Source of the DNA: a virus
IMG/VR virus record: IMGVR_UViG_3300023179_000012
Length of the DNA: 64,000 bases
Strand: one strand, 5' to 3'
A model generated the notes under the pieces. It saw only the letters and a list, made by a program, of their open reading frames with translations, ran no database searches and had not been told where the DNA came from. Shown piece after piece: positions 22,448 to 64,000 of this stretch; the stretch's first letter is position 1; every line of letters begins with the position of its first letter. Position numbers and translations under genes: made by a program.

Positions 22448-22458
22448 TCCGTTGTCAA

Positions 22459-24093: not shown

Positions 24094-24176
24094 AATCTTT
24101 TTGGCTTGTCAACAGCAAAATCCCACTTTTTCGCTGACTACAGCCACACTGACCAAATCCGTAGGATTGGCTGAGA

Positions 24177-25060: not shown

Positions 25061-25241
25061 TTTCTTTTCTCCTTACTTCTATTATCGGTATTTTACAGGC
25101 TAAACTTGAGAAAGTCAAGAAAATAATCCTGTGCCAAATGCGAATATTTTTTAGAATGTCCTAAGTCCTTATGGGGCAAGTACTTACGCAAAAATCGCCA
25201 CGGCCCCCGCGTCATAAGTCTTTACGCGGAAAGGCTTTATG

Positions 25242-25523: not shown

Positions 25524-25573
25524 TTCACTTTCTCCGTTGTGATGTTTCTATTCTACAGCCACTATTCTAAAAA

Positions 25574-25750
25574 TCAAGAGCAAAAATCTGCTGGCTCGGG
25601 ATACATTTCTTCCCACAACCCAGTCACTTCGGCATAATCAAACGGGTCGCAATCAACCTCGTCGATAGGTTCGACCATAGGCTCGATCATACCATCGTCA
25701 GCGAGTTGAGAGAGGATAGCGTTGATGGTATCGGTGTCATCGAGGATCAT
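25574..25750 (-). CDS. acidic small protein (not in ORF track, 58 aa)
   Basis: Hand translation MILDDTDT..; 17 D/E, no K or R; below promoter 25779. Confidence 0.65.
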   Translation of the reverse strand: MILDDTDTINAILSQLADDGMIEPMVEPIDEVDCDPFDYAEVTGLWEEMYPEPADFCS

Positions 25751-26042
25751 ATCGTTTCTCCGTTGGGGTGATGCGATGATTCTACAGTTATTATCGACAA
25801 ATGCAAGCCCACACCTTGAGAATAATCCTATGCCAAACTAAAAATATTTTCTGACACGGTATTTTCTTGGATCATTTTCTCTAAGTGCTTGTGCAGAAAG
25901 GACTTAGGAAAAATCCGGCCCGGCGTCCTCGCCGTAAGTCTTTACGGATCAAGGACTTGCGTCATTATTTAGATAACACGCAATAACATAGGCCAACATA
26001 ACTAATAATAAATGTAAGTGCAGCAAGCATTATAATATTCCT

Positions 26043-26231
26043 TTATTTGGCGTGAATAAATACGTTTTTACTAGCGGTCTGATTTGTTACAGTCACAATC
26101 CAGTTTTTTCCGCTACCATCTTCCCGAAGAATACCGTTGATGATACCAACGTGTACATTACCCTTGGGATCAGTAACAGTGCCATACTTTCCAGACCGCA
26201 TAGCACTCATAATCTTATCAAGACTATTCAT
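26043..26231 (-). CDS. hypothetical protein
   Basis: Minus-strand ORF in unit. Confidence 0.55.
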   Translation of the reverse strand: MNSLDKIMSAMRSGKYGTVTDPKGNVHVGIINGILREDGSGKNWIVTVTNQTASKNVFIHAK

Positions 26232-26245
26232 TATACTATAACCTT

Positions 26246-26446
26246 TCAGTTAGCGTTAGCAGGCTCAAAAATATCCAGAACATTACACTTGTCAACATAG
26301 ATTGAACGATATCCATGCTCACACTTGACGGTGAGAAGAATACGCTCTCCAAACTGACGCACCCTAGTCACAACGCCGTCAACAACCTCTCCGTTGTTAT
26401 ACTCGGCATGAACAGCATAACCAGCCATGGGAACCTTACTCGTCAT
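26246..26446 (-). CDS. hypothetical protein
   Basis: First ORF below promoter-like region 26470. Confidence 0.55.
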   Translation of the reverse strand: MTSKVPMAGYAVHAEYNNGEVVDGVVTRVRQFGERILLTVKCEHGYRSIYVDKCNVLDIFEPANAN

Positions 26447-26680
26447 TCTACCCTTTCTTTCTCTCTTCTATTATCGACATTATACAGGCGATTCTTTAGG
26501 TTGCAAGCAAAATCTTTGGATTTTTGTGTCAAGATTTTTTGACAAAACTTTTCTGTTTTTCGGTATGGTTTGGCATACCGTTTGCTGATGCGATTTTCCC
26601 TAAGTCGTTACGCTGTAAGTACTTACGTCAAATTCGCTGCGCCCATATCGTCGTAAGTCCTTACGCCGTATGGGTTTGCG

Positions 26681-26866
26681 TCAACTCTGTCCCGGATAGA
26701 TTCTTCCGCTCTTGAGTCGCTGTACAAGCGTATCGTAATCGTCAGTCGTGAACAGCGTATAATAAGCATCCCGCTCCTGCACGATCCACTTGCGAGTGTA
26801 TCCGTTCCACACACTAGCCACGACCACACCGAGAGAGTTAGCCAGAGATACGATTTCAGCATTCAT
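26681..26866 (-). CDS. hypothetical protein
   Basis: Stop 1 nt from repeat; start MNAEIV. Confidence 0.55.
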   Translation of the reverse strand: MNAEIVSLANSLGVVVASVWNGYTRKWIVQERDAYYTLFTTDDYDTLVQRLKSGRIYPGQS

Positions 26867-26868
26867 TT

Positions 26869-27084
26869 TCAAGATACTCCCATCCAAGATGCTTTTTCCA
26901 CACAGTAATCATAGAATATATCGTTCAAAACTTCAAGATGGTTTTTTTCGGTCAAACGACGACGAGCAAGGATAGCATCGCACTCTGCGAAAAACTTACC
27001 CGTGGACACTTCATATACAATCGTACACGCATACGATTCGCTTCCCCAAATCCTAGCCTTAACATCAACGAACTTCTTCAACAT
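26869..27084 (-). CDS. hypothetical protein
   Basis: Minus-strand ORF in unit. Confidence 0.55.
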   Translation of the reverse strand: MLKKFVDVKARIWGSESYACTIVYEVSTGKFFAECDAILARRRLTEKNHLEVLNDIFYDYCVEKASWMGVS

Positions 27085-27323
27085 CTGTTTTCTCCTCTTC
27101 TCTCTTCTATTATCGACATTCTATCAGACTTTCTTCAACATTTCAAGAGGGCAAAAAAGATTTTTGTAGCAGCAAATATCGTGCCAATCATAAGTCGTTG
27201 TCTGATAAGCACTTAGGCACAAGTCGTGCCGCCGAGTTCGACGCAAGTCCTTACGCCACAAGGATTTACGTCGAATTGTTGTACAGTAGTGTACAGGCTT
27301 ATATCCCCATAATAGGGGGCTTA

Positions 27324-27647
27324 TTACCCCTCCCACCCAAAGGGGGATACTTCCTCACCGCAAGCCTGAATAGCGGCATACTGTTCGATTAGAGCCTCTA
27401 CACGTTCACGCGATCCAGGTTTGCCAACCTTCACGATCATGGTATCCTCACCACCAACCATGCGAGAATCTACCTTCTCGCTCTTGCTCTTGCCGATATT
27501 CTTCAATGCGGTGCGATTGAACTTCAGCACCTTTTCGCTGCGAATCGTTCCACCATCTGCGTTAGTTTTGTCGCAAGGGATAGCGATACCAACGAAGCAC
27601 ATACGGGCAACTCGCTCAGCATCACGAACAATCTTAGGCTTTTTCAT
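27324..27647 (-). CDS. hypothetical protein
   Basis: Purine-rich leader, plausible composition. Confidence 0.6.
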   Translation of the reverse strand: MKKPKIVRDAERVARMCFVGIAIPCDKTNADGGTIRSEKVLKFNRTALKNIGKSKSEKVDSRMVGGEDTMIVKVGKPGSRERVEALIEQYAAIQACGEEVSPFGWEG

Positions 27648-27707
27648 TTTCTTTCTTTCTCCTTTGGATGATGGATCGTACTAAACTTTTCCCTGTGACG
27701 CAACCCC

Positions 27708-27956
27708 TCAAATGAGGGACGCTTCGCGCTCCTTGCGAAACTTGATGGCGTACAGTTCGTCCACAACAACGCGAACCACGGTATCCATGCTGACACTCTT
27801 GTGGGTATAGTATCCACAATGGATAGCGAACAGGCTATACGTACCGGGAACACCGGATGGTATCGACCCCACACTGTGGGGGTGAAGGGTAAAACCCGCA
27901 TTGTAAGCGTAACGGCGAATACTCTTGCGAATCGTTTCAATTTTTGGGATTCTCAT
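27708..27956 (-). CDS. hypothetical protein
   Basis: Start MRIPKI after a GA-rich leader. Confidence 0.5.
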   Translation of the reverse strand: MRIPKIETIRKSIRRYAYNAGFTLHPHSVGSIPSGVPGTYSLFAIHCGYYTHKSVSMDTVVRVVVDELYAIKFRKEREASLI

Positions 27957-28024
27957 CTCTATCTCTCTTTCTCTTTCCAGTATTATACCAAACTTTTTCG
28001 ACAGCACAACCCCCACAACGGGGG

Positions 28025-28201
28025 TCACCATCCGTTTCTCCGACACTCATCGGCCCAATCCCGATCCTCTTGACGGGTACGATCATTATACCCGTATCCA
28101 CCATAGGTAAGGTAGTTATCCTTCATGGCATCGTATCCATCATCCGAATCGTGAACATCGTCAAAATCTTCGTAATCGTACAGGGGGTCAGGGCAACTCA
28201 T
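28025..28201 (-). CDS. acidic small protein (PDPL family copy 2; not in ORF track, 58 aa)
   Basis: Hand translation MSCPDPLYDYEDFDD..; N-terminus resembles MSHPDPLFD of 23332-23637. Confidence 0.65.
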   Translation of the reverse strand: MSCPDPLYDYEDFDDVHDSDDGYDAMKDNYLTYGGYGYNDRTRQEDRDWADECRRNGW

Positions 28202-28652
28202 TTTTCACTCTCTCTTTCTTACCTCTATATAGTGCATGTTCTGTGCCAAAAGTCGAAAAATATTTTTGTGCGACTTTCTCGACGATTTCCGCAGGCTGTC
28301 ACCTTGGCACTATGTCATATTGGCAAAGTCTGCCATTTTTGGCTGCCGTATTGTTTGGCACGATATCTGCTGTGGTCATTTGATCTAAGTCGTTATGCCA
28401 CAAGTACTTACGTCGAATCCGCGGCCGCGAATTTTTCGTAAGTCCTTACGCCGTAAGGGTTTGCATCAAGTCGTTGTACAGTAGTGTACAGGCGTACACC
28501 CCACTACAGTGGGGATGCACAAGCGTACACTGAGCCGAATGGTACGTTATGCTGATTAGCATATACTGAACGAGCATCCGCCCAATCCTTAGCAAGTACC
28601 ATGCCAAGGTAGAAATCATTTTCCGAATTGTAGATATAGTAGGTTTTCATGA

Positions 28653-28802
28653 TTAGGAGATCAGTTCCATATCCTCATTGTAGCACTCGTACTCATCTCC
28701 GTCAATCTCTACGTGCCACACATCACCCTCATCGAAATGCCAGCGAATGATTCGACCAATCTTTCCGTCAACCTTCACCTTATCACCAAGAGCAAACTGC
28801 AT
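28653..28802 (-). CDS. small SH3-like protein (not in ORF track, 49 aa)
   Basis: Hand translation MQFALGDKVKVDGKIGRI..W.VE.. Confidence 0.6.
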   Translation of the reverse strand: MQFALGDKVKVDGKIGRIIRWHFDEGDVWHVEIDGDEYECYNEDMELIS

Positions 28803-28864
28803 TTTCTTTCTCCTTACTTCTTATATCGGTATTCTATCAAATATTTTTTAGATTATCTACCCCC

Positions 28865-29089
28865 TTATCGGGGGATCGTAATCAGATCACCAAAATGTGA
28901 GAACGTCAACTTGAGAACCCTATTCGGATATTTCTCATCGATATACTTCTGTGCAGTGCTTTTCCGATTATCGGTAGCACTCACACCCTGTACAACTGTA
29001 CCGTTCTCATCAATCACCTTCCAAACCTTCTTTTGAACGATACGCGGAAGGCTTTGGATGAAATCGTTGATATGAGTAACCTTTTCCAT
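28865..29089 (-). CDS. hypothetical protein
   Basis: Start MEKVTH below promoter TTGCAA-N16-TATAAT. Confidence 0.55.
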   Translation of the reverse strand: MEKVTHINDFIQSLPRIVQKKVWKVIDENGTVVQGVSATDNRKSTAQKYIDEKYPNRVLKLTFSHFGDLITIPR

Positions 29090-29452
29090 TTTTCTTTCTC
29101 TCTTTCTTTCTTCTCTTTTCTCTTGTGCTTTCATTATACAGTATATATCGGCCATTGCAAGCGAAATCTTTTGAAAAAATAAAAAATAATTCTGTGCCAA
29201 ATCAAAAAAACTTTTTGGTATACCGTTTGCTCTCTCGATTTCTTCTAAACCCTTATACCACAAGCACTTACACGCTCTTCGGCGTGACAAACAAGACGTA
29301 AGTCCTTATAATATCAGCACTTAGAGAGAGGGGGTTTTTCTGTTTCTTCTCCAGTCTCAAAACCTCTGACCCTAAACCCGCGGTGGTCCAAACATAGTAA
29401 GCAAACCATATATAATTGGCCAGTTTAATGACAAGTTTCCCCATTATTAAAT

Positions 29453-29489
29453 AAAAAAACAGGCACCAATTATGAGTTGATGCCCGTTT
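29453..29489 (-). terminator. putative intrinsic terminator
   Basis: Hairpin followed by a T7 tract on the minus strand, after gene 29516-29740. Confidence 0.5.
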
Positions 29490-29515
29490 CTTTAGTATTC
29501 TACAGATTCTTTACT

Positions 29516-29740
29516 TCAAACGTCCGAAACCGACTCGACCTTTGGAGCTGATGGTCTACGACCTCTTGGCTTGGCAATTGACAACTTTCGCCTCTGACGT
29601 CTAACCATTCCCACAGTAATTTGTCGGCTACCATCAATCTTGTTTAAATAAGTGGCAATTTCCTCGTCCTTCATATTTTTGCTGTTATTAGCAATAAAGT
29701 CTGTTTCTTCTTTTGTCCACTTTTTATAAGTTTTTGACAT
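29516..29740 (-). CDS. helix-turn-helix DNA-binding protein
   Basis: WTKEETDFI..KDEEIATYL..ITVGMVRRQRRKLSI. Confidence 0.7.
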   Translation of the reverse strand: MSKTYKKWTKEETDFIANNSKNMKDEEIATYLNKIDGSRQITVGMVRRQRRKLSIAKPRGRRPSAPKVESVSDV

Positions 29741-29945
29741 TTTATCCTCCTGCATAAGTTGCTTATTGTGTATCAAACATCTATAATAGTATAAATGTCA
29801 CAAAATTCTGGTCAAGGTAAACCCATGAAAAATTCTAAAAACATACATACAATATCATCAACTTTAAAAACAGTTGCTAGCGAAAACCTTGTAACAGAAG
29901 CAGAGTTACAAAACCTAGACGATAAACCGCTAGAGGAACTACTTA

Positions 29946-30596
29946 ATGAGCAAAAACAAGAAAACGCCCAAGAAAAAGACCAATTTACCCAACAACATAA
30001 CGGATGAAGAATTTATAACAGTATGGGAAAAAATTAGTAAAAAATTAGGCTATAAATTTAAGTTTGGGTATCATAGTCACGAGGATATGAAGCAACAGGC
30101 CGCCATATTCGCCTTGGAAGGACTTAAAAATTATGATAATAAAAGGCCCCTAGAAAATTTCTTATGGACCCACGTGAGAAATCGACTCTTTAATTACAAA
30201 AGAGATAACTATCAAAGGCCCGATAAACCCTGCTTCACCTGTCCTTTTTACAAACCAAATGATAGTGCTTGTTCTAGTGGTTGTTCAGAATTTAAAAACA
30301 AAAGTGATTGTGAATTATTCGCCTCATGGAGCAAACGAAACGATACCAAAAAAAATATTATGAAACCAGTTGGTATAGATAATGTTAACGAAAATAGTAC
30401 CGAAATAGTTGACTTTAATCTTCTGGACGCTATTAGTAACAAAGAAATTATTAAAATTATAGATAATAATATTAGTATTAAAAATCGCCCCATATTTCTC
30501 AAATTGCTAGGAGGCAGCAAAGTTTCTAAGCTTGAAGTTAACAAACTAGTCAAAGAAATAAAAAAAATATTAAAAGACAATGACATCAACTCCTAA
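29946..30596 (+). CDS. phage RNA polymerase sigma factor (sigma70-family region 2) with Cys-rich insertion
   Basis: EDMKQQAAIFALEGLKNYD..LENFLWTHVRNRLFNYKRD. Confidence 0.75.
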   Translation: MSKNKKTPKKKTNLPNNITDEEFITVWEKISKKLGYKFKFGYHSHEDMKQQAAIFALEGLKNYDNKRPLENFLWTHVRNRLFNYKRDNYQRPDKPCFTCPFYKPNDSACSSGCSEFKNKSDCELFASWSKRNDTKKNIMKPVGIDNVNENSTEIVDFNLLDAISNKEIIKIIDNNISIKNRPIFLKLLGGSKVSKLEVNKLVKEIKKILKDNDINS

Positions 30597-40013: not shown

Positions 40014-40418
40014 ATGCCAGCAGGAAATTATAATTTTACTATAGAACAAGGGGCCTCTTTTGGTCTTAGCTTAACATATGCGGATTCTAGTGGAGTACCA
40101 ATAAATCTATCCGGATTCCAGTGTGCTAGAATGCAGTGGAACGCAAATAATAATAATACATATCAATTTACTACTACTAATACAAATAGTGGTTTATATT
40201 TGTTTCAATTTGGATCACCATTAAGTAGTGGTATTATTAATTTTAAATTACCAGCTAGTATCACAGCAGGATACGACTTCACATCGGCTAATTATGATAT
40301 GGAATTAGAATCTTATGCTGTATTTTATAGTGGCGGAGGTCCGCAAGTTATAAGATTATTACAAGGCACAATTACTGTAGAACCTGAGATTACGAAAATT
40401 AATTGTGCTGGTGCTTGA
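40014..40418 (+). CDS. BppU-like structural protein
   Basis: NFTIEQGASF..INLSG..ARMQ..YDMEL..RLLQGTITV. Confidence 0.55.
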   Translation: MPAGNYNFTIEQGASFGLSLTYADSSGVPINLSGFQCARMQWNANNNNTYQFTTTNTNSGLYLFQFGSPLSSGIINFKLPASITAGYDFTSANYDMELESYAVFYSGGGPQVIRLLQGTITVEPEITKINCAGA

Positions 40419-43400
40419 TGAGTACTATTACGATAGTAACGCTTAATGGTGAAACACACACAATAAATATTGATCAACCAAACTCAAATAATCTTGAGGT
40501 TGCAGAAGGTATTGGGTCAACTCATAATGTGTCTGTTTCTGAACTTGGCTCTGAAAGCCAAAATATATCATTAGATGATGCGGAAATTAATGTTGTTACT
40601 ATACAACCAACAGAATCATCAACAATATCTGTTGCTACTACAGACATATCTAATTCTGTAGTAACAATTAACGAAGGACAACAAGGTCCTCCTGGAGCGG
40701 GCGCTCAAGGCATACAAGGTATACAGGGTCCTCAAGGAACAACTGGAATACAAGGATTTTATGGTATTCAAGGTGTTCAAGGAGTTCAAGGTCGTCAAGG
40801 GACTCAGGGAATCCAGGGGACTCAAGGAACTCAAGGAATTCAAGGAATTCAAGGGGTCCAAGGAACTCAAGGAGTACAAGGAAACCAAGGAACACAAGGT
40901 ACTCAAGGTGTCCAAGGCTCTCTTGGCATACAAGGCATCCAGGGAATACAAGGTGTTCAAGGTCGTCAAGGGACTCAGGGAATCCAGGGGACTCAAGGAA
41001 CTCAAGGAATTCAAGGAATCCAAGGAGCTCAAGGAATTCAGGGCAATACTGGTACTCAAGGATCTGTGGGAATTCAAGGAACACAAGGTGTCCAAGGAAA
41101 TATTGGAGCACAAGGTGCTCAAGGCAACCAAGGTATTCAGGGTGTTCTTGGTAACCAAGGAACACAAGGTACTCAAGGCAATCAGGGCACACAGGGAATC
41201 CAAGGTATATTTGGTATACAAGGAACTCAAGGAGTTCAAGGTAATCAAGGTACCCAAGGTATTCAAGGAACCACAGGTATACAAGGATCATTAGGTACTC
41301 AAGGAACACAAGGTATCCAAGGAGTTCAAGGTATCCAAGGAAATCAAGGCACTCAGGGTTTATTAGGTATACAAGGAAATCAGGGGACCCAAGGTACTCA
41401 AGGTACGCAAGGTATTACTGGTTCTCAGGGAACAACAGGAACTCAGGGATTAACCGGCTCTCAGGGCACACAAGGAACTCAAGGTATACAGGGTAGCACA
41501 GGTACTCAAGGAACTCAAGGCATCCAGGGAAACCAGGGAACACAAGGAACTCAGGGAACACAAGGTTTACAAGGAACTCAAGGTTTACAAGGAACTCAAG
41601 GTTTACAAGGAACTCAAGGTTTACAAGGAACAACTGGCTCCCAAGGAGCTCAAGGACTGCAAGGAACAACCGGTAGCCAGGGAACACAAGGTCTACAGGG
41701 AACAACTGGTGGTCAAGGAACACAAGGCTTGCAAGGTTTACAAGGACTGCAAGGAACTCAAGGTCTACAGGGAACAACTGGTAGTCAGGGAACTCAAGGA
41801 CTGCAAGGAACACAAGGTCTACAGGGAATCCAAGGAACTCAGGGAACACAAGGTCTACAGGGAACGCAAGGTCTACAAGGCTTGCAGGGAACAACTGGTA
41901 GTCAAGGAACTCAAGGACTACAAGGCTTGCAAGGCTTACAGGGAACAACTGGTAGTCAAGGAACTCAAGGACTACAAGGAACTCAAGGTATTCAAGGCAA
42001 TCAAGGTATACAAGGTATTACTGGTAGTCAAGGTTCAACGGGTAGTCAGGGAAGTACAGGATCTCAAGGAGGTACTGGAAGTCAAGGATTTACAGGTAGT
42101 CAAGGTACTACAGGAAATCAAGGCAGTGTCGGAAGTCAAGGTACTACGGGATCACAAGGAATAACTGGAAGTCAAGGAACCCAAGGCATTCAAGGGACAC
42201 AGGGGATTCAAGGTAACACTGGTACAAATGGTAGTCAGGGAACTCAGGGAATACAGGGTAATGCTGGTTCTAATGGAAGTCAAGGTACTCAAGGACCGCA
42301 AGGAACAACTGGTAGCCAAGGTACTCAAGGAACTCAGGGCACTCAAGCAACAATAACAATTACCAGCACCAATAATACAAGTATTGGTAGTGTTGGTGGA
42401 GCGGCAGTTTTTACTTATTCTAATACGCCAAGTATTGGATTTGCTGTTGGCCAAAGAATAAGAGCTGCTGTAACAGCAAGTCCCACAACTAACTATATGG
42501 AAGGTATTATAACATTTGTTAGTTCTAGTAGTGTTACTTTTACTATTGATATTAGTGCCGGTAGTGGTAGTTATAGTGCTTGGACTCTATCAATCACTGG
42601 ACAAAGAGGCATACAAGGTATCCAAGGTAATCAGGGATTAGTAGGTTATTCTGGTAGTACTGGTAGTACTGGAAACCAAGGTACACAAGGTATTCAAGGA
42701 GTTCAAGGAACTCAGGGATTACAAGGTTATTTTGGTATTACTGGAAACCAAGGTATTCAAGGCATACAAGGTTATTTTGGTAATCAGGGTCTTCAAGGCA
42801 TACAAGGTTTCGACGGATTACAAGGACTACAAGGCATACAGGGAAACCAAGGTACTTCTGGCACCAATGGTAGTCAAGGCGTTCAGGGTCTTCAAGGTAG
42901 ACAAGGAACTCAGGGTATAACTGGAAGTCAAGGAGCATCGGGTAGTAACGGTAGTCAGGGTACTCAAGGAATAACTGGTCCGGTTGCTGGTAGTGCTAAT
43001 CAAGTTGTATATAAGAATGGTAGTAATATTGCTTCTGGTACTTCAGTATTCACATTTACTGATACTACAAATACTCTAGCTATTCAAAATATTAGCATAA
43101 CAACTAACACAATTGGTGCTACTAATACTAATGGTAAACTAATTCTTGCTCCTAATGGAACCGGAGCGTTACAAAGAGATGGTGATGGAAACGCACGAGG
43201 ACAATATGCTGTGGATTGGCAAACGGTTCGATCTACTGGAACTATGGTTGCTGGTGCTAATTATAGTGTTATTGGCGGTGGGCAGAATAACTCAATAATA
43301 TCAGGAAGTGAATATAGTGTCATAGGAGGAGGAAACAACAATAATATTATTGCTTCTGGTACGAGTTATAATAATGTTATAGGCGGTGGAATTGGTAATA

Positions 43401-44560
43401 ATATTAGTGGTTCTGGTATAAATGATCGTAATGTTATAGGCGGTGGAGCTAGCAATAATATAATTGGAACACATAGTTATTATTGTACAATAGGTGGAGG
43501 AGGTAATAATACTATAAGTGGATTCTATAGTTACCGCAGTACTATATGCGGTGGATATAATAATCAAATTACTGGATACTATACCTATTATAGTACCATA
43601 TGTGGTGGATATCATAACTCCATATCAGGACAATCTTCTTACCATGGTAGTATAGGCGGAGGTTATAATAATACTATAGGTGGATCAAATAGTACTTATT
43701 GTACAATAGGCGGAGGAAATAATCATGTTATAAGTGGAGATCAAAGTTATAATAGTACTATAGGTGGCGGAACATCTAATACTATAACTGGAGAATACTC
43801 TTACTATAGTACTATAGATGGTGGATCAAATAATACCATAAGCGGATATGAGTGTTATTTTAGCACAATAGGTGGAGGAGGTAATAATACTATAAGTGGA
43901 TATTTTAGTAATAGTAGCACAATAGGTGGTGGACGTTTTAATACTGTGGTAGGAACTAATAGTCAGTATAGCACAATAGGTGGCGGAAATAATAATACTG
44001 TGAGCGGAAGTAGTAGTATGTTTAGTACAATAGGTGGCGGATATAATAATGCTGTGAGCGGAAGTAGTAGTATGTTTAGTACCATACCTGGCGGAAGGGA
44101 AGCAGCAACCACAAGATACGGTGAATTGTCTCATGCCGCAGGTCGATTTTCTTCTAATGGTGATGCTCAACACACAATCCTCATCGCTAGAAAAACAACA
44201 TCAAATAATACAGCAAATCAAATTCTTTATTTAGATAATAGCGGCGCAATGCTTATATTACCAGCTAAAACAAGTTGGACATTTGAAATTAAATTAAGTG
44301 CATATAATGATACTGATAGTGCAGCAGCTGGATGGATATTCAGAGGTGTTATAAGACGTAACGGAAGTAATGGAACAGCACTAGTTGGTAGTTTAATAGA
44401 AGAAAACTGGAAAGATACAGCCATGAATAGCACAAGTGCCAGTGTGGTTGCTGATGATACTAATGAAGCTTTGCAAATTAGAGTAACTGGATTAACTAGT
44501 AAAAATATAAGATGGGTTGCGGTTGTGGATATTAGTCAAGTTAGTTATGGCACACCATAG
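40418..44560 (+). CDS. collagen-like (Gly-X-Gln) fibre protein with beta-helical repeat head
   Basis: About 185 + 42 GXY triplets; STIGGGxNNxIxG repeats. Confidence 0.85.
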   Translation: MSTITIVTLNGETHTINIDQPNSNNLEVAEGIGSTHNVSVSELGSESQNISLDDAEINVVTIQPTESSTISVATTDISNSVVTINEGQQGPPGAGAQGIQGIQGPQGTTGIQGFYGIQGVQGVQGRQGTQGIQGTQGTQGIQGIQGVQGTQGVQGNQGTQGTQGVQGSLGIQGIQGIQGVQGRQGTQGIQGTQGTQGIQGIQGAQGIQGNTGTQGSVGIQGTQGVQGNIGAQGAQGNQGIQGVLGNQGTQGTQGNQGTQGIQGIFGIQGTQGVQGNQGTQGIQGTTGIQGSLGTQGTQGIQGVQGIQGNQGTQGLLGIQGNQGTQGTQGTQGITGSQGTTGTQGLTGSQGTQGTQGIQGSTGTQGTQGIQGNQGTQGTQGTQGLQGTQGLQGTQGLQGTQGLQGTTGSQGAQGLQGTTGSQGTQGLQGTTGGQGTQGLQGLQGLQGTQGLQGTTGSQGTQGLQGTQGLQGIQGTQGTQGLQGTQGLQGLQGTTGSQGTQGLQGLQGLQGTTGSQGTQGLQGTQGIQGNQGIQGITGSQGSTGSQGSTGSQGGTGSQGFTGSQGTTGNQGSVGSQGTTGSQGITGSQGTQGIQGTQGIQGNTGTNGSQGTQGIQGNAGSNGSQGTQGPQGTTGSQGTQGTQGTQATITITSTNNTSIGSVGGAAVFTYSNTPSIGFAVGQRIRAAVTASPTTNYMEGIITFVSSSSVTFTIDISAGSGSYSAWTLSITGQRGIQGIQGNQGLVGYSGSTGSTGNQGTQGIQGVQGTQGLQGYFGITGNQGIQGIQGYFGNQGLQGIQGFDGLQGLQGIQGNQGTSGTNGSQGVQGLQGRQGTQGITGSQGASGSNGSQGTQGITGPVAGSANQVVYKNGSNIASGTSVFTFTDTTNTLAIQNISITTNTIGATNTNGKLILAPNGTGALQRDGDGNARGQYAVDWQTVRSTGTMVAGANYSVIGGGQNNSIISGSEYSVIGGGNNNNIIASGTSYNNVIGGGIGNNISGSGINDRNVIGGGASNNIIGTHSYYCTIGGGGNNTISGFYSYRSTICGGYNNQITGYYTYYSTICGGYHNSISGQSSYHGSIGGGYNNTIGGSNSTYCTIGGGNNHVISGDQSYNSTIGGGTSNTITGEYSYYSTIDGGSNNTISGYECYFSTIGGGGNNTISGYFSNSSTIGGGRFNTVVGTNSQYSTIGGGNNNTVSGSSSMFSTIGGGYNNAVSGSSSMFSTIPGGREAATTRYGELSHAAGRFSSNGDAQHTILIARKTTSNNTANQILYLDNSGAMLILPAKTSWTFEIKLSAYNDTDSAAAGWIFRGVIRRNGSNGTALVGSLIEENWKDTAMNSTSASVVADDTNEALQIRVTGLTSKNIRWVAVVDISQVSYGTP

Positions 44561-48971: not shown

Positions 48972-49964
48972 ATGATTAGTGATATAGGAAATTTTAGCAA
49001 AAAAGTAATTCTAGATGGCGGCAAAATTGTACCATTGTTAGTACAACCAGACAAAATGGTTGGACCATCACTGATGAATCCATCAATACTAAATATAGAT
49101 GGAAAATTATTAGTTAATTTACGCAATGTGAATTATGTTTTATATCACGCAGAAGATGGTGTTAACGAACACGTTTGGGGGCCATTATGCTATCTTCATA
49201 CAGAGCAAAATGCTGTTCTAGCCACACACAATATACTTTGTTTTTTAGATGATAATTTTAATATAGTTAATAGTTCTATAGTTGACACAACACAACTAGA
49301 TCAAAAACCACTGTGGGAATTTATAGGATTAGAAGATGCTAGATTAACATATTGGAATAATAAATTATATTTAAGTGGAGTACGACGAGACACCACCACC
49401 AATGGTCAAGGACGCATAGAATTATCAGAAATCACTATTGACGAAAATAATAACGCTAAAGAAATTAGTAGACAAAGATTGCCAGCACCACCACCAGACA
49501 CCTCATACTGCGAAAAAAACTGGATGCCCATTAGCGATAGGCCATATCAGTACGTAAAGTGGACAAATCCAACAGAGGTTGTGGAATATGATCCAGCCAC
49601 CAAAGAAACAAAAACTATTGTATTAACAGAATTTCAGAATCTTAATACCAGAGATTTACGCGGAGGATCTCAGGTTATACCATACGGAGATTATTACTTA
49701 GGATTATTACATGAGGTTGATTTGTTTAAGAGCGAGGCTGGTCGTAAAAATGCCACCTATAGGCACAGATTTGCATTATGGGACCAGAGTTTTAATCTTT
49801 TAAGGGTGTCTCCGCGTTTTGATTTTATGAGCGGAGAGATTGAATTTGCTTGTGGAATGACCGAATATAATAATCAAATTTTAATTACTTTTGGTTTTCA
49901 AGATAATGCGTCTTATCTATTAGTGATTAATAAATCTACTATAAATGAGTTAGTATCACTATGA
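48972..49964 (+). CDS. five-bladed beta-propeller glycoside hydrolase/phosphorylase (GH130-like)
   Basis: NPSI, GLEDARL, EKNWMP, RGGSQ, EFACG. Confidence 0.7.
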   Translation: MISDIGNFSKKVILDGGKIVPLLVQPDKMVGPSLMNPSILNIDGKLLVNLRNVNYVLYHAEDGVNEHVWGPLCYLHTEQNAVLATHNILCFLDDNFNIVNSSIVDTTQLDQKPLWEFIGLEDARLTYWNNKLYLSGVRRDTTTNGQGRIELSEITIDENNNAKEISRQRLPAPPPDTSYCEKNWMPISDRPYQYVKWTNPTEVVEYDPATKETKTIVLTEFQNLNTRDLRGGSQVIPYGDYYLGLLHEVDLFKSEAGRKNATYRHRFALWDQSFNLLRVSPRFDFMSGEIEFACGMTEYNNQILITFGFQDNASYLLVINKSTINELVSL

Positions 49965-52513
49965 AAGAACTATCAAACTATATTAATGATCCAGAAAATG
50001 ATTTGAATAATTTTAATTTAGGATTATTTTATGAGCAACAGAATCACTACTCTCCAGCATCAGGATACTATTTGAGGTGTGCTGAAAAAACTAAGAATCT
50101 GGATCTCAGATACGAATCATTATTAAGAATGTATTATTGTTTCAAACTATTAGGTGATAGAGATCATACTTGTGATAGTTTATTAAAACAGGCCATTTGT
50201 TTGTGTCCACAGAAGCCAGAAGGTTATTTCTTATTAACCCAACACTATGAATCAAAATCAGATTGGCTAAATGTTTATACCTATTCTTCTATAGCTTTGG
50301 ATGTTTGTAAAGACGCATCATCATTCATATCAGATATAGATTATGCAGGATTATATTGCTTATTATTTCAAAAAGCAGCAGCAAGTTGGTGGATTGGCAA
50401 ACCCAAACAATGCAGACAATTATATCAAACTTTGCTTAATGAATATATAAATCAACTATCAGATAATTACAAAGCTCTACTCGAAAATAATTTATCAAGA
50501 ATAGCAAGTGGTCCAACATCTCAAGCAATTAGGAGATATACAAAAAATCTAAAAGATACCTTAAGATTCTCATTTGACGATGTGGATATTATTGAAGAAA
50601 ATTATTCACAGGTCTATCAGGATATGTTTGTATTAACTATTTTAAATGGAAAGAAAAACGGAACCTATCTTGAAATAGGCTCGGCAGAACCTTTTAAAAA
50701 TAGTAATACTGCTTTATTAGAGAAAAAATTCAGCTGGAAGGGGATTGGTATAGAACTTAATGAAAATTTTGTTAAGCAACACAAGGAGCATCGAAGTAAT
50801 CCAGTACTCCCTGTTGATGTATTAATAATAGACTATAATAAACTATTAAATAAATATTTTCCGGATACAGATACTATAGACTATCTACAACTAGATATAG
50901 AACCTCCAAGAAATACATTTCAAGCTTTACTAGCTATTCCTTTTGATAAATATAAATTTTCAATTATAACATATGAACATGATTATTATGTAGATGTTTC
51001 TAGATCATACAGAGATAAATCTAGAGAATACTTGAGTAGTCTAGGCTATATATTGGTTGTTTCCAACGTATCTCCAGATAAAAATAGTCCATTTGAAGAC
51101 TGGTGGATTCATCCGGAGCTATTATGTCAAATAAATAATTATAGTTTAATTAATACTTTTAATAATCAAAATATTAATTTTATAGAAGACGTTATGTTAA
51201 AAAAAAACAATAAACTAAACGCTTTACATAATATTAATTTTATTAGTATCGAAGAATCCTTCGATAGACAAGAAAACCTTAAAAAACAATTTTTGGACTA
51301 TAACATAACAAATTTTACTCCAAATATCTTTAAAAGATACCAAGAGTATAATTATAAACTACATGGAGATCTGGTTTCAACTTTACACGAAAACAGTAAG
51401 GGTCCGGTTACTTCTCATATCAAATCAATTAAAAGATGGTACGATTTAACTAATGAAGAATATGGTTTTTTTTGTGAAGACGATTTGTCTTTAGAAACAG
51501 TGCCATATTGGAATTTTACGTTTCAAGAATTTATAGATAACCTACCAGAAGATTGGGAGTGTGTTCAACTAACATGCGTTAGACCAAATCCTATTGGTAT
51601 AAAATTAAGAGAAAGATTAGATGATGACTGGAACGCGGCCGCATATTTGATAAAAAGAAATTATGCTAAAAAAATAATTGATAATTATTATGTAAATGAT
51701 AATGAATTTAATCTAAAAATTAATAATACAAATCAAATTCCAATAGTTGAAAATATATTATTTAGTAATATCGGTAAAGTTTATAATTTTCCAATCTTTA
51801 TAGAAGACATAGTTAATACAAAATCTACCTGTTTAGCTAACGATTTAGTTGAAGAAAATGGACAAGGACCATATCATTGGGATTCATATTATTGGGTAAT
51901 CAACTGGTGGAAGCAATTTGGACAATATCTTACAATACAAGAATTGATGAAAAAATTTAGTCATATTTATCAGCAAAACCAATTTGGCGAGAACTGGTTC
52001 ACCTATCCCGATCTTTATAGGTCTATGGTAGAAAAATTTCCTTCTGGTAGTAAATTTGTTGAAGTTGGATCATGGAAAGGTAAATCTTCAGCATATATGG
52101 CTGTTGAAATTGCAAACTCAAACAAGAAGATAGATTTCTATTGTGTAGACACATGGGCTGGAAGCGATGAGCACAAAGATTTAGATACTACTAATATTTA
52201 TGAAATATTCATGAATAATATGAAGCCTCTAGAAAAATATTATAAATCAATTAAATCCTTATCTGTTGAAGTGGCTAAACAATTTGAAGATAATTCTCTA
52301 GATTTCGTCTTTATTGATGCATCACACGATTATGAAGATGTCAAAAATGATATCCTAGTATGGTTGCCAAAAATTAAACAAAATGGAATATTAGCAGGAC
52401 ATGATTATTATGTTGATCAAATAGACTATTTTCCTGGAGTTAAGCGTGCTGTAAATGAGATTCTCAAAAATATCAAAACCCAGGAAAACTGTTTTATTTA
52501 CGAAAAGATATAA
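49961..52513 (+). CDS. multidomain TPR / FkbM-type methyltransferase / GT25-like glycosyltransferase / class I methyltransferase
   Basis: TPR N-terminus; YLEIGS..DYLQLDIE; ISIEESFDR..SH..CEDD; VEVGSWKGKS..IDASHDY..GHDY. Confidence 0.8.
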   Translation: MKELSNYINDPENDLNNFNLGLFYEQQNHYSPASGYYLRCAEKTKNLDLRYESLLRMYYCFKLLGDRDHTCDSLLKQAICLCPQKPEGYFLLTQHYESKSDWLNVYTYSSIALDVCKDASSFISDIDYAGLYCLLFQKAAASWWIGKPKQCRQLYQTLLNEYINQLSDNYKALLENNLSRIASGPTSQAIRRYTKNLKDTLRFSFDDVDIIEENYSQVYQDMFVLTILNGKKNGTYLEIGSAEPFKNSNTALLEKKFSWKGIGIELNENFVKQHKEHRSNPVLPVDVLIIDYNKLLNKYFPDTDTIDYLQLDIEPPRNTFQALLAIPFDKYKFSIITYEHDYYVDVSRSYRDKSREYLSSLGYILVVSNVSPDKNSPFEDWWIHPELLCQINNYSLINTFNNQNINFIEDVMLKKNNKLNALHNINFISIEESFDRQENLKKQFLDYNITNFTPNIFKRYQEYNYKLHGDLVSTLHENSKGPVTSHIKSIKRWYDLTNEEYGFFCEDDLSLETVPYWNFTFQEFIDNLPEDWECVQLTCVRPNPIGIKLRERLDDDWNAAAYLIKRNYAKKIIDNYYVNDNEFNLKINNTNQIPIVENILFSNIGKVYNFPIFIEDIVNTKSTCLANDLVEENGQGPYHWDSYYWVINWWKQFGQYLTIQELMKKFSHIYQQNQFGENWFTYPDLYRSMVEKFPSGSKFVEVGSWKGKSSAYMAVEIANSNKKIDFYCVDTWAGSDEHKDLDTTNIYEIFMNNMKPLEKYYKSIKSLSVEVAKQFEDNSLDFVFIDASHDYEDVKNDILVWLPKIKQNGILAGHDYYVDQIDYFPGVKRAVNEILKNIKTQENCFIYEKI

Positions 52514-59433: not shown

Positions 59434-62400
59434 ATGGCCGCATTTAATTTAACAGCAGAAATTAATCTAAGAGGTCCTTCCAATATTAGGAAGGTTGTTG
59501 GAGATATTAAAAGAGAGCTTGGTAATATAGAATCCCAGGTTACTCTTAAAATATCTAATAAAGCCGCCCAAAATATTAATAATATCACTAATAGTGTCAA
59601 CATATTAAATGATGCACTTTTAAGAGCACAGGCAACCGCCGGAAACCTATCATCAACACTATCCTCTCTTGGTGTTTCCACGGGTAATGTTTCTAGCAGT
59701 CTTAAGTCAATTTCAAGTGGCACAGCAGAGTTAACATCTTCTGCACAAACTGTAGCCAAAGCAACATCAGAAGCGTCGTCCGAAATGGCAGAGTTCGGTA
59801 GACAATCTGCTCTTGCTGTGAGAAGATTTGCCGCTTTTAGTGTTGGTACAGCATCAATATACGGTTTAACAAGAGCTATTTCATCTTCGTTTAGTGAATT
59901 TATTAAATTTGATAGACAACTAGTTAGACTAAAACAAACCACAGGAGATTTCAGTTCCGATATTGATAGTATCTCTAATGAAATTTCGAGACTGTCCACA
60001 ACTTTTGGTGTTAGTTCTGGTGATTTGGCGGAGGTTTCGGTAACACTAGCTCAGGCCGGTTTAAGTGCTGTACAAACCAAAGACGCTCTAGAAGCATTAG
60101 CAAAAACCGCCTTGTCTCCATCATTTGAAAATATTCAAGATACTGCGGAAGGTGCTATTGCCGCCATGAGGCAGTTTAATATTTCAACCAAAGAACTTGA
60201 TAGCGCTTTGAGTTCTATTAATGCTGTTGCTGCTGCGTTTGCTGTTGAATCAAGCGATATTATAGCTGCTATTCAGCGTACTGGTGGTGTGTTTGCAAGT
60301 TCTAGCAGAGGAGTTAGTGAAGGTAAAGACGCTCTAAATGAATTTATTGCTGTATTCACCAGTGTTCGTGCTACAACTCGTGAAAGCGCTGAAACTATCG
60401 CTACTGGTTTAAGAACTATTTTTACTAGAATTCAAAGACCAAAGACTATTGAAGCATTAAGAGAATATGGTATTGAATTAACAGACTTAAAGGGTAAATT
60501 CGTTGGAGGCTTTGAGGCCATAAAAAGAATTAGCGAAGGCTTGACCGGATTAGATACTAGAGATATAAGTTTTGCTAAAATTGTTGAAGAATTGGGTGGA
60601 TTTAGACAAATCGGTAAAGTTATTCCATTAATTCAAGAGTTCGGCACCGCACAACAAGCATACAATGTTGCTGTACAAGGACAAGGCAGTTTAACCAGAA
60701 ATGCTATTCAAGCTCAAGACGCTCTAGCTGTACAATTCTCTAAAACCAAACAGGAGTTTGATGCTCTTATTAGATCTGTCGGAGACACAGGAACATTCAA
60801 AAATATTATTTCTGGTGGACTAGGACTGACAAGAGTACTAATCAATCTTGTTGGAGCTTTTAAACCACTGTTACCCTATCTTGCTATTATTGGTGGACTA
60901 AAAGCTGGAGCAGCATTAACAGAATACGCAGGAGGATTTTTAGGTGGCCTGAAGAAAAACCAAAAAGGCTCTGCTCCTCCAGAAGATTTATTAGGCCCTC
61001 TTGGTGGTGGTGGTAATCGACCAAAGAGACCATCTTCTGGCGACACAATGGATACTAGTGCCTTAGAAGCATTTTTATCTGATAATAGCACCGCTCTTAA
61101 TAATGTAACAAATTCTTTAGCAGCTTTATCAAAAACAATATCAGACGGAGCATTAGCATCGTCAAGTGTTGATCTAACTAGTATATCATCATTGATTGGT
61201 GGACTTGGCGATCAAATAGGAGAATTAAATAGTAGTTTACTAACTAGTGGCGATATTTTTAAATCATCAGCAGAACAAATCTCCACCTCGGTAATAAGCA
61301 TGTCATCTATAATGACTGGGGTTGGAGATATATATAAAGCATCTACAGATAATGTTTCAACTAATTTATTAACATTATCAGGGGCTATTCAAGAACTATC
61401 AAATAAACTTAGTGGTACAACACCTCCAAATGAAAACTCTGGACCATCAGAAGGTCCAACTATGAAATCTGGTGGTGGAGTCATTAGAAAATTTGCTAGA
61501 GGAGGTTATGTTCCTGGTTCTGGCAATAGAGATACTGTACCAGCAATGTTACAGCCTGGAGAATTTGTTATTCGTAAAAAAGCTGTTGATACTATAGGTG
61601 CTAATCAATTACATAGTATGAATAAATATGGAAGAGGAGGAATCGCTTCTAAATTTCGTTCTGGTGGTAAGATACAAAAATTTAAACAAGGCGGTGGAGT
61701 TGCAGATGTACAATTCACAGAGGGCTACGACGGAGATTCTTTCCATGTTAATTTCACACCAGCAGCTTCTCCATATGAAACATTAACAAGACTAGAGGGT
61801 GCTGACGCATATGAAATTAAAGGAGCTGCCACCAGAAAAGGATATGATGCTAATGAGATCGCTAAGGGCAAGCAAGCTGCTGAAATAACTACAAGATGGG
61901 CGCAAACAGCAGGAAAAGACAAATTATTAAAATCATTCAAAGATTCTAATAAATATGATAATCTTGGCCGTCCAATGTTTAAGTCGGATGAATTAGTCGG
62001 TCTTCTAAAAGGTGCTGGTGTCCTTGATCCAGAAAGTAAATGGAATCAAAAATCATTAGGTGGATTAATACAAAAATTTGCTCGCGGCGGCAAAGCTAAA
62101 AAAACCGAGGATTCGCCTCCTGTTCGTCCGCCTCTAAATCTGCCTGATATTATACCAGGAACAACGCCAGAACTCGAAATAGCAATAGCAGATGCAAAAA
62201 AGAGAAACAGCACATACGCTTTAACAGATAGAAGAGATAATATAAAAAGCAGGCTTACTCAAGCATATAGAGGAATAATTTTTCCAGGACTAAAACCATC
62301 TACAGAAAAAATTACAGATGACACAATAATATCTCTTTATTCCGAAGAGACATCGGGCTATATTAAAAGATCGATTAAATCATTAGAAGCCGATCTTAAG

Positions 62401-64000
62401 TATATAGATATGGCAACTAAAAAACCGGAGCAATTAAAAGCTACAAAAACACGTAGCATTAGTGATATGCTTGATGCTATTAGAGCATACCAAGCTTTCG
62501 GTTTAGACTCTACCTTAAACGAAGCTGCTGCTAATAATACTTTAGACGCTAAATTGGGCAGCATCTTAACTGAAGAAGATAAAAAAAGATACGCAGCAAT
62601 AGCTGATAAACCCTTATCGTTTTTTGCAGAATCTTTGGATGATAGTATGCAGTTTTCGATGCCAAAAACATTATATGCGGGCTTGGGACAAAGCAAACAA
62701 AAATTATTGTTGGACTCCGCTGGAATAAAAATTAACGAAGAAAAAGATATACAAAAGCTTGTTGGCAAAACGGTTAGTATGCCATCATTCTTATCTTCTT
62801 CAGAATTAGAGAGTGTTGGTTTGAGTTTTTCTAGAACCGGCTTAATGAAAATAGCAACAAATCCTAAACGCAAAGGTTTAAATGTTAATTTAGCTAAAGA
62901 ACAAACAGTTAACAGAGATGACATGGCGACCAGAAGTTCTAAAAATAGGCTTATTGATAATGAATCAGCATTTTTTAGCGAAGATTTTGCTGATGATATG
63001 GATATTGAAAGCGAATATATTTTTCCTAGAAATAGTAAATTTAAGGTTTTAAAAACAGAAAGTAGCATATGGAATAGAAATAAACCACCAGAAGATCCTT
63101 GGGCTATAAACTGGGATGTGCAAGAACTAGCTCAAGGAGGTAAAATTCAAAGAAAAGTTGGTTATATTGATTACGATGTAATAGCTAATGAAGCTAATGC
63201 TGCGGTAGTAGATGCTGGAATGAAACAGGCTGGGGTGAGTGGTCCTAGATTATATGCAGACTATCTTACAGATCTTGCTGTTAAAGCTAGAAAAGAAGAA
63301 AGCTTAGATAAATTAAGAGCAATTTATGGTGTTGCTGGTAGTGGTAAAACTACTCTTGCTCGTGGAGCCGGAACCGATATTGGCACCATGAGACAAACAG
63401 AAAGATTTCCAATATTAAGTCCAGAAGATATACAAAAGGCAACAGAAGTATTAATATTAACCAGTACTGTTTCTAAAGATAAATTAGAAGGATTTTTGAG
63501 AGAGGTTGATAGGGCTTATACTCTCAGTTCAACAACACCAGAAGAACAACAAAGAATACTATCTCAAAGATCAAGCAGAGATATTACTGGAATAGGACTA
63601 GAAGGCCGTCAACCCGGCGCCACAACTGGAGTTGGTACAGACACAGCTATCGGAGAAGCATTATTAGGCGATGCTCTTGGTAAAAAATCAGTTGTATTAG
63701 GAAGAACAGGGACTGGTAGACTAAGAGCTAAAAATAAAAATGAATTAGTTGATGTTATCAAGAAAAAGATTGGCTTCACATGGGGTGGATTTGCTCCAAC
63801 AACAAGAGGACACGAATCTATTGTTGATGCTGCTGCTGCTTATGGTATACCACCAGAAGATTTTATAGCTTTAGTTGGATCCAATGAGGGGATTAGAAAT
63901 ACTGATCCATCAAGTTATAGAACAGCAATTTTAGATCAAGACGCTAGAGTATTATTAGCTAAAGCTGGTTTTGGCGCAAAAGGAGCCACAGTATTACCAA
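59434..64000 (+). CDS. tape measure protein (TP901-type) with fused enzymatic domains; runs off the window
   Basis: Read by hand, open from ATG 59434 to 64000; LAQAG, EGAIA, ETIATGLRTIFTRI core; GGYVPGSGNRDTVPAMLQPGEFV. Confidence 0.9.
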   Translation, partial: MAAFNLTAEINLRGPSNIRKVVGDIKRELGNIESQVTLKISNKAAQNINNITNSVNILNDALLRAQATAGNLSSTLSSLGVSTGNVSSSLKSISSGTAELTSSAQTVAKATSEASSEMAEFGRQSALAVRRFAAFSVGTASIYGLTRAISSSFSEFIKFDRQLVRLKQTTGDFSSDIDSISNEISRLSTTFGVSSGDLAEVSVTLAQAGLSAVQTKDALEALAKTALSPSFENIQDTAEGAIAAMRQFNISTKELDSALSSINAVAAAFAVESSDIIAAIQRTGGVFASSSRGVSEGKDALNEFIAVFTSVRATTRESAETIATGLRTIFTRIQRPKTIEALREYGIELTDLKGKFVGGFEAIKRISEGLTGLDTRDISFAKIVEELGGFRQIGKVIPLIQEFGTAQQAYNVAVQGQGSLTRNAIQAQDALAVQFSKTKQEFDALIRSVGDTGTFKNIISGGLGLTRVLINLVGAFKPLLPYLAIIGGLKAGAALTEYAGGFLGGLKKNQKGSAPPEDLLGPLGGGGNRPKRPSSGDTMDTSALEAFLSDNSTALNNVTNSLAALSKTISDGALASSSVDLTSISSLIGGLGDQIGELNSSLLTSGDIFKSSAEQISTSVISMSSIMTGVGDIYKASTDNVSTNLLTLSGAIQELSNKLSGTTPPNENSGPSEGPTMKSGGGVIRKFARGGYVPGSGNRDTVPAMLQPGEFVIRKKAVDTIGANQLHSMNKYGRGGIASKFRSGGKIQKFKQGGGVADVQFTEGYDGDSFHVNFTPAASPYETLTRLEGADAYEIKGAATRKGYDANEIAKGKQAAEITTRWAQTAGKDKLLKSFKDSNKYDNLGRPMFKSDELVGLLKGAGVLDPESKWNQKSLGGLIQKFARGGKAKKTEDSPPVRPPLNLPDIIPGTTPELEIAIADAKKRNSTYALTDRRDNIKSRLTQAYRGIIFPGLKPSTEKITDDTIISLYSEETSGYIKRSIKSLEADLKYIDMATKKPEQLKATKTRSISDMLDAIRAYQAFGLDSTLNEAAANNTLDAKLGSILTEEDKKRYAAIADKPLSFFAESLDDSMQFSMPKTLYAGLGQSKQKLLLDSAGIKINEEKDIQKLVGKTVSMPSFLSSSELESVGLSFSRTGLMKIATNPKRKGLNVNLAKEQTVNRDDMATRSSKNRLIDNESAFFSEDFADDMDIESEYIFPRNSKFKVLKTESSIWNRNKPPEDPWAINWDVQELAQGGKIQRKVGYIDYDVIANEANAAVVDAGMKQAGVSGPRLYADYLTDLAVKARKEESLDKLRAIYGVAGSGKTTLARGAGTDIGTMRQTERFPILSPEDIQKATEVLILTSTVSKDKLEGFLREVDRAYTLSSTTPEEQQRILSQRSSRDITGIGLEGRQPGATTGVGTDTAIGEALLGDALGKKSVVLGRTGTGRLRAKNKNELVDVIKKKIGFTWGGFAPTTRGHESIVDAAAAYGIPPEDFIALVGSNEGIRNTDPSSYRTAILDQDARVLLAKAGFGAKGATVLP

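Follow-up and report, generated by a model that had tools for sequence, protein, structure and literature searches.

The DNA analysed here (the window, in the following) is a 64,000-nt stretch of the IMG/VR virus record IMGVR_UViG_3300023179_000012. It ends within a large open reading frame (ORF) on the plus strand, 59434..63999, which codes for 1,522 aa inside the window and whose 3' end is open at the window edge. [quoted passage not shown] The explanation that we favour, and consider fairly probable, is that of a giant TMP composed of ruler parts and of linker-bordered enzyme cassettes which are borne into the host.

By sequence, the ORF is a TMP of the TP901/PhageMin_Tail type. The PhageMin_Tail domain (59977-60561, plus strand; aa 182-376) is recognised by Pfam PF10145 at E 3.1e-24, and PHROG tape-measure families match at E 5e-22 to 1e-10, with phrog_28, phrog_4211 and phrog_1533 at 5e-22 to 9e-18. 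These matches and the conservation define an N-terminal ruler core of aa 1-680 (59434..61473, plus strand). Within it, Gly-rich hydrophobic stretches (aa about 455-525) are followed by a low-complexity tract rich in Ser and Thr (aa about 540-680), and aa 1-510 are about 52% identical in all relatives.

The full-length sequence is a composite. Metagenome contig L015 equals the window at 100% identity across all 4,567 nt from the ORF start, and on this contig the ORF continues to 3,302 aa. Residues past that point, the last 1,972 of the called product of 5,274 aa, were taken from P0243, the protein of a near-identical strain, with 1 mismatch in 2,680 aa. The tape measure gene thereby forms an open frame of 15.8 kb. 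A first-pass annotation, made from the window sequence, had described the TMP core and the enzymes as parts of the same frame, which holds true; the length of 5,274 aa had been missed.

Parts that are TMP-like and free of cassettes are aa 1-680, 2690-3220, 3300-4320 and the C-terminal end, which sum to about 2,200 residues. Only the first of them is established as ruler, the other three are termed ruler-like upon inspection of the sequence. Their total would correspond to the size of the small family members. The region of aa 2626-3302 (L015:10052-12082), which lies past the cassette bay, shows Gly/Ala-rich hydrophobic stretches and likewise appears ruler-like on inspection. A sub-threshold Pfam match to 'Aminopep' (E 4e-4), which spans aa about 3760-3892 in a ruler-like part, was not accepted.

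The first-pass annotation had drawn attention to five repeated motifs in this frame, all of which are present: KFARGG at 61489 (aa 686), KFRSGG at 61651 (aa 740), KFKQGG at 61678 (aa 749), KFARGG at 62074 (aa 881) and ELAQGG at 63124 (aa 1231). When the residues of the protein were shuffled 20,000 times, at least four KFxxGG never arose together. The fuller form of the motif reads GG-x-(I/V)-x-(K/R)-F-x-x-GG, and the consensus over 120 giant relatives is GG-x-(V/I)-Q-(K/R)-(F/Y)-A-x-GG-x-V. With the looser pattern [KRQ][FYL]xxGG we counted 741 occurrences in 123 relatives, while about 100 are expected by shuffling, which amounts to a more than 7-fold excess.

KFxxGG had been regarded as a plain linker, and it was located correctly as such. 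What had been overlooked is that it forms the conserved flank of a roughly 55-residue joint of the lambda gpH type, with the pattern (K/R)(F/Y)AxGG ... PAxLxPGEFV ... N(K/R)YxxGG. The first full joint, J1, is located at 61489..61641 (plus strand; aa 686-736) and consists of KFARGG, YVPGSGNRDTVPAMLQPGEFVIRKKAVDTIGANQLHSMN and KYGRGG. Its pattern KFARGG ... PAMLQPGEFV ... NKYGRGG has a counterpart in lambda gpH 730-785 (FATGG ... GEFV ... YATGG). In pairwise BLASTP against lambda gpH, joint J2 yields E 7e-7 with 45% identity over 44 aa and J1 yields E 0.002; the Pfam family Tape_meas_lam_C does not match at E <= 0.1. Moreover phrog_35029 and phrog_37649 match aa 681-758, and 35 records of cultured phages, with Gordonia, Streptomyces, Vibrio, Stenotrophomonas and Synechococcus among their hosts, have the joint in tape measure genes. 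The 5,274-aa protein carries five full joints with GEFV cores at aa 703, 2637, 3245, 4345 and 5065.

Individual cassettes are separated by stripped-down solo linkers of the form GGxIQKFAxGG, which are located at aa 740, 749, 881, 1231, 2144 and 2418. The first two stand in tandem, nine residues apart (KFRSGG-KIQ-KFKQGG, 61651..61695, plus strand; aa 740-754). The spacing between motifs in 123 relatives peaks at 9-12 aa (tandem), 36-70 aa (joint) and 151-300 aa (cassette), with 68 cases in the 9-12 aa class. We read such tandem solo linkers as empty cassette slots. The next one, GGLIQKFARGG (62056..62091, plus strand; aa 875-886), lies between the nuclease and the ADP-ribosyltransferase (ART) cassettes described below and is modelled as disordered, with a pLDDT of 30-32 at model residues 117-142. 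A degenerate version, ELAQGG (63124..63141, plus strand; aa 1231-1236), marks the start of cassette E. At this position 12 of 17 relatives have KF(A/V/E)xGG, and GG is kept in all 17.

The linker Gly codons vary between GGA, GGT and GGC, and nucleotide identity between linkers is 36-67% over 42 nt. Since the codons differ from copy to copy, the motif is kept at the level of the peptide. For the same reasons we rejected the idea that the linkers act as DNA repeats which drive homologous recombination within the gene.

For the cassettes, homologous segments from relatives were gathered as DNA references and aligned, and two pieces were folded (model 1, aa 755-1230, pLDDT 73; model 2, aa 1237-1720, pLDDT 80). 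Pfam gave no family on the four window segments beyond sub-threshold P-loop matches. The PDB, searched by phmmer and by profiles, likewise returned nothing meaningful for segments C, D and E or for the ART alignment. As the Pfam and PDB sequence searches failed, the domain assignments rest on predicted folds. At this level the earlier claim of four unrelated enzyme domains is borne out, with a staphylococcal nuclease (SNase), an ART, a putative P-loop and a HIGH nucleotidyltransferase fold. That these domains are bracketed by linkers applies to the SNase and the ART, each of which has its own borders. It does not apply to the P-loop domain, the nucleotidyltransferase and a HAD-like part, which share a linker-free block of aa 1237-2143.

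Cassette C (61696..62055, plus strand; aa 755-874) is predicted to adopt the staphylococcal-nuclease fold, based on the AF2 model and on motifs. The model (residues 1-120 of model 1), with pLDDT 51-88 in this part, superimposes on 1sta_A with Z 8.4 and an rmsd of 3.3 A over 105 of 137 residues, and on the SN domains of Tudor-SN with Z 6.4-6.5. DGDS (766-769), TR-LEGADAYE (785-794) and LGRP (844-847) are kept in 5 homologues. The Ca2+ and catalytic residues of SNase (D21, R35, D40, E43, R87) were matched by motif order, not by residue-level structural alignment. Pfam reports no family for cassette C at E <= 10 and none for its homologues at E <= 0.05, and the SNase profile is unmatched.

Cassette D (62092..63123, plus strand; aa 887-1230) is modelled as a helical subdomain followed by a C3/VIP2-type ART fold, which covers aa 997-1230 (model 1 residues 243-476). 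By VIA it matches 8za7_B with Z 13.3 and an rmsd of 2.8 A over 160 residues, followed by iota-like (Z 12.5) and VIP2 (Z 12.0) folds. Foldseek matches C3bot at E 2.6e-6, and Vis and ExoS-type ARTs were matched as well. Among the BFVD viral models, ModA, ModB and ART fusions to MuF or portal proteins match the cassette; T4 Alt, a virion-associated phage ADP-ribosyltransferase, was not among these matches. PF03496 is detected in 9 of 14 alignment members (best E 1e-8), and in the window copy it is not found at E <= 0.05. SFLSSS (1118-1123) is placed on model strand 366-369 and ESEYIF (1192-1197) on strand 440-443, which are the strands expected for S-T-S and E-x-E, and the ExE is conserved in all homologues. 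The beta-1 Arg of Y-R-G is absent: the window copy reads LYAG (1080-1083), and all 10 ART-bearing alignment members have S, A or T at this position. By its model, cassette D is an ART fold and not a standard R-S-E enzyme. As a stand-alone query the cassette found one 241-aa fragment. In relative P0004 there are two tandem ART-like cassettes (L029:4034-5116 and L029:5438-6427), 46% and 41% identical to that of the window, which shows that cassettes duplicate within the array.

Cassette E begins with a domain that is predicted to be P-loop NTPase or kinase-like (63142..63753, plus strand; aa 1237-1440) and has the Walker A motif GVAGSGKT at aa 1299-1306. The sole fold match listed for it (model 2 residues 4-203) is the zeta toxin 6epg_B, a weak one with Z 6.6 over 153 residues, and a search of the ESM Atlas gave no usable match. 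The second domain, a putative HIGH-type nucleotidyltransferase (63760..63999, plus strand), extends from aa 1443 to about 1621 and is cut by the window at aa 1522. Its motif GGFAPTTRGH is located at aa 1451-1460 (TTRGH at aa 1456-1460), and ISGTMVR follows past the window at aa 1581 (L015). The model (residues 207-385 of model 2) resembles (VIA) the PPAT 4nah_A with Z 13.5, the NaMNAT 3h05_B with Z 13.4 and the NMNAT 1f9a_A with Z 13.3; NadR follows at Z 9.4-10.7, and Foldseek matches 1m8f at E 2.1e-5. Moreover HIGH_NTase1_ass is detected in 7 of 10 homologues, with a best E of 2.8e-5. On L015, where cassette E occupies 5885-8605, the block continues with a HAD-like part with DxDxT (aa 1888) and ends at the linker KFRNGG (aa 2144). 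Further downstream, at aa 2277, an HExxH motif (HETFH) suggests a zincin-like cassette (aa 2150-2417), and module G follows at aa 2424-2624. Cassette E is nearly confined to giant TMPs: it has 98 matches among 1.84 billion representative proteins, all of which are giants or short pieces. Given so few relatives, the cassettes are probably lineages resident in giant TMPs and not recent cellular captures.

In NadR and NadM an NMN adenylyltransferase is joined to a kinase or Nudix domain. Cassette E resembles them in that a HIGH nucleotidyltransferase fold is joined to a P-loop domain. It differs by the reversed domain order, by the added HAD-like part and by nil sequence similarity.

The family to which the protein belongs comprises 917 clusters of 2,665-5,000 aa and 1,489 clusters of 837-2,664 aa, with others of up to 7,279 and 7,574 aa. 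Length rises with the number of linkers (Spearman rho 0.67), of which the median is 2 in proteins of 2.0-2.3 thousand residues and 7 in those of 4.2-5.0 thousand. Seven members of about 2,000-2,200 aa were examined; they consist of the core and two or three joints and are mostly without these cassettes, with one of the seven (P0208) having a block that aligns to cassette C. The core and the joints are shared by nearly all of 240 family members, and the intervening material is patchy. Accordingly patchy is the occupancy by cassettes in 124 relatives, where the nuclease is found in 32, the ART in 11, block E in about 55, the zincin-like cassette in 9 and module G in 26. Pattern-based searches for loci added only 4.

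Regarding the borders of this material, BLAST blocks of the window protein against four relatives begin at linkers. The endpoints of high-scoring segment pairs (HSPs) of at least 150 aa in the 124 relatives lie within 10 aa of a linker in 34% of cases; positions drawn at random do so in 6.9%, and in 12% at most over 2,000 trials. The endpoints cluster at aa 885-894. A motif-independent anchor is provided by VGYIDYD, the conserved start of cassette E: xxGG is found six residues upstream of it in 17 of 17 copies, despite differing modules before it. When compared across related TMPs, the domain content between linkers varies and the borders coincide with the linkers. The first-pass annotation had considered protease cleavage sites or domain-insertion points, and the latter reading gains support, as homology blocks are bounded by linkers, slots are filled by different cassettes and length follows the linker count. 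From these comparisons, the joints and linkers are supported as points at which cassettes are gained, lost or exchanged between related phages.

Some further observations concern the same family. A block at aa about 4386-5035, between the last two joints, is present in 2-8 of the 240 relatives. The largest tape measure ORF, with 7,574 aa, is found in IMGVR_UViG_3300032249_000861 (L012+L013), and there are representatives of 7,279 and 7,122 aa too. These three are among the longest phage proteins that we have met. In two relatives (L031 and L033) the gene after the tape measure gene (1,170 and 2,001 aa) has an FGE-sulfatase domain (PF03781), in one of them also fn3.

As to amino acid composition, Cys does not occur at all in the 5,274 aa, compared to 0.8% in the neighbouring ORFs (P about 3e-19). 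In 317 family proteins there are 88 Cys in 1.0 million residues, and 267 of the 317 are without any. Both lambda gpH and T5 pb2 have zero Cys as well. Since the whole protein and its family avoid Cys, the enzymes share a constraint that is typical of the tape measure itself. Such avoidance fits a cargo which takes the route of the TMP through tail tube and periplasm.

Our proposal is as follows. Between the ruler-like parts lie bays that hold folded enzyme cassettes. Since TMPs exit the tail before the DNA does, the cassettes would be carried into the host ready-made: the nuclease, the ART-like domain that lacks the Arg, the kinase/NMNAT-like/HAD block, the zincin-like and other modules might reach the host envelope or cytoplasm in this way. 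The linkers would represent flexible, exchange-tolerant junctions.

Several points weigh against this proposal. Domains of 15-40 kDa that are present in three to six copies are, when folded, too big for the tail-tube lumen of about 4 nm, so that the cassettes would have to be stored unfolded or elsewhere. The ART-like cassette may be inactive because the catalytic Arg is missing in every homologue. The assignment of the P-loop domain leans on a motif and a weak fold match. HSP endpoints partly reflect that the joints are the best-conserved pieces. Moreover, genes for tail tube, sheath and chaperone are not recognisable upstream of the tape measure gene. The six ORFs directly upstream have no match to PHROG, Pfam or a named Atlas family.

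It was also considered that the linkers are cleavage sites, at which a protease (the zincin-like cassette, another phage protein or a host enzyme) frees the enzymes during tail maturation or infection. We regard this as possible but not likely. The modelled disorder of the linkers and their invariant GG are consistent with cleavage, and there is precedent in known tape measure proteins. Lambda gpH is cut in a Gly-rich region just before its joint, resulting in gpH* and gpHC, although the exact site and the catalyst are not established (PMC12617516). In T5 pb2 the cut separates a hydrophobic stretch from the C-terminal part that has the enzymatic function (bioRxiv 10.1101/2022.09.20.507954). 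From the pb2 sequence we infer a cut at ...FVPR/AEGG..., which would yield the 92-residue pb2C (length according to PMC12617516) starting with A1128; this site, however, precedes the GG. By contrast, gp96 of P23-45 is full-size in virions (PMC10770324). A candidate protease is at hand with the HExxH cassette at aa 2277 in the same protein, and self-processing by embedded peptidases has been proposed for polyvalent proteins (PMC5512222). But the zincin-like cassette occurs in just 9 of 124 relatives, and within the window no protease was identified. Cleavage at tandem linkers would furthermore yield useless nonapeptides of 9 aa; they look more like empty slots.

In a more far-reaching version, the protein would serve as a cartridge from which an anti-defence kit is injected. 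The activity that matures lambda gpH would also cut the linkers upon ejection. This would free the nuclease, the atypical ART-like NAD binder or enzyme, and the kinase/NMNAT-like/HAD block, which might rebuild NAD+ or a related nucleotide within seconds, before phage gene expression, and thereby counter NAD-depleting abortive infection. The cassette bay would then evolve through swaps at the joints, as part of an arms race that involves thousands of lineages of freshwater phages. We consider this scenario speculative and improbable.

Alternatively the cassettes might stay tethered and act at the envelope as periplasmic or extracellular penetration tools, for example the nuclease against matrix DNA and the peptidase against the wall, with the linkers as hinges for threading. 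In agreement with this, known enzymes borne by TMPs are mostly wall hydrolases (T5 pb2C; SPbeta YomI is annotated as transglycosylase), the avoidance of Cys would suit periplasmic exposure, and the unprocessed gp96 (PMC10770324) provides an example of an uncut protein. The predicted folds point in the opposite direction: ART, NMNAT-like and kinase folds need NAD+ or ATP, which are cytoplasmic substrates, and the part within the window yielded no fold of a wall hydrolase. Tethered action is seemingly quite improbable.

Finally, the giant ORF could be an artefact of assembly or gene calling, by a chimera or stop read-through, with motifs due to chance or low complexity. On contig L014 (JGI assembly 3300014050, same phage) the gene is indeed split into 628 and 4,652 aa (L014:5109-6995 and 6983-15015) by an indel in the Ser/Thr-rich low-complexity tract at about aa 620, owing either to variation between strains or to misassembly of repetitive sequence; yet this reading is refuted for practical purposes by the upstream neighbour, whose exact protein is on eleven independent metagenome contigs, by the identity of L015 with the window over 4.6 kb, by the 917 and 1,489 relatives in the two size classes and others up to 7,574 aa, by the frame that is open over 15.8 kb and by the more than 7-fold enrichment of the motif over shuffles.

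The giant TMP with enzyme cassettes as we propose it has partial counterparts among known systems. One of them is gp96 of the Thermus phage P23-45 (also in P74-26, G20c and TSP4), a 5,002-aa TMP fused to an active virion RNA polymerase (PMC10770324). It is likewise a giant TMP that takes a working cytoplasmic enzyme into the host, and it has a metallopeptidase and membrane segments. In contrast to the protein described here it has one N-terminal enzyme, an exchangeable cassette array and a reiterated joint are not reported, and it is uncleaved in virions.

Lambda gpH shares the joint at 730-785, the absence of Cys and the cut in a Gly-rich region beside the joint, but is only 853 aa in length, has a single joint, carries no enzyme cargo and is not known to have enzymatic activity. 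In T5, cleavage of pb2 separates the muralytic C-terminal pb2C from the ruler, and this piece is expelled into the host envelope (bioRxiv 10.1101/2022.09.20.507954). This again is a TMP with an enzymatic part and no Cys; however, the part is a single small wall-degrading module, and the sequence has no recognisable GEFV joint.

Polyvalent proteins (Iyer et al. 2017, PMC5512222) combine many unrelated conflict-type domains, including ART, in mosaic fashion, with proposed processing by embedded metallopeptidases. The TMP resembles them by several unrelated conflict-type domains in one polypeptide, and its delivery would follow from TMP biology. By contrast, polyvalent proteins are head-packaged or associated with MuF, portal or N4 vRNAP, and no conserved inter-domain joint is described for them; neither 'tape measure' nor 'linker' occurs in the text of PMC5512222. 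The phage ARTs of the T4 type (ModA, ModB) and those fused to MuF or portal proteins have the same fold as cassette D and are attached to virion proteins for delivery. Here the carrier is a TMP instead, and in all homologues Ala, Ser or Thr takes the place of the R-S-E triad's beta-1 Arg. In the literature searched, joint-delimited cassette arrays in TMPs are not described, and a search for cargo of giant TMPs gave nothing relevant. The papers searched do describe single enzyme fusions to TMPs and polyvalent virion proteins.

The tape measure gene sits in a structural module on the plus strand together with genes for large terminase, portal, major capsid and fibre proteins. One of the latter is a 1,385-aa collagen-like tail fibre (40403-44560, plus strand) that is matched by dozens of fibre PHROGs with a best E of 4.5e-142. 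The module also harbours an 850-aa glycosyltransferase-/methyltransferase-like fusion (49961-52513, plus strand; phrog_2835 at E 4e-39, phrog_2675 at E 7e-22). The ORF between portal and capsid gave nothing in PHROG and Pfam scans, and for a 351-aa upstream ORF the ESM Atlas contains 'hypothetical' viral clusters only. The region 12000-30000 of the window has a G+C content of 0.41-0.45, compared to 0.29-0.35 in most of the remaining window, and a negative GC skew that points to minus-strand genes.

TMPs are seen as rulers that also form channels; now and then one bears a wall hydrolase, and a single fusion to a polymerase is known. The family described here, whose protein clusters from lake metagenomes number more than 2,400, extends this view to a ruler that doubles as a rack for interchangeable, Cys-free enzymes. 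The comparison also directs the search for the cleavage site of lambda gpH to the region around the gpH joint. If the cargo is indeed delivered, these proteins would represent a widespread phage route for bringing pre-made enzymes into cells at infection. Anti-defence or takeover activities so far unknown would then be found among them, and the conserved joint, a site that tolerates exchange by nature, would lend itself to the engineering of cargo into phage tails.

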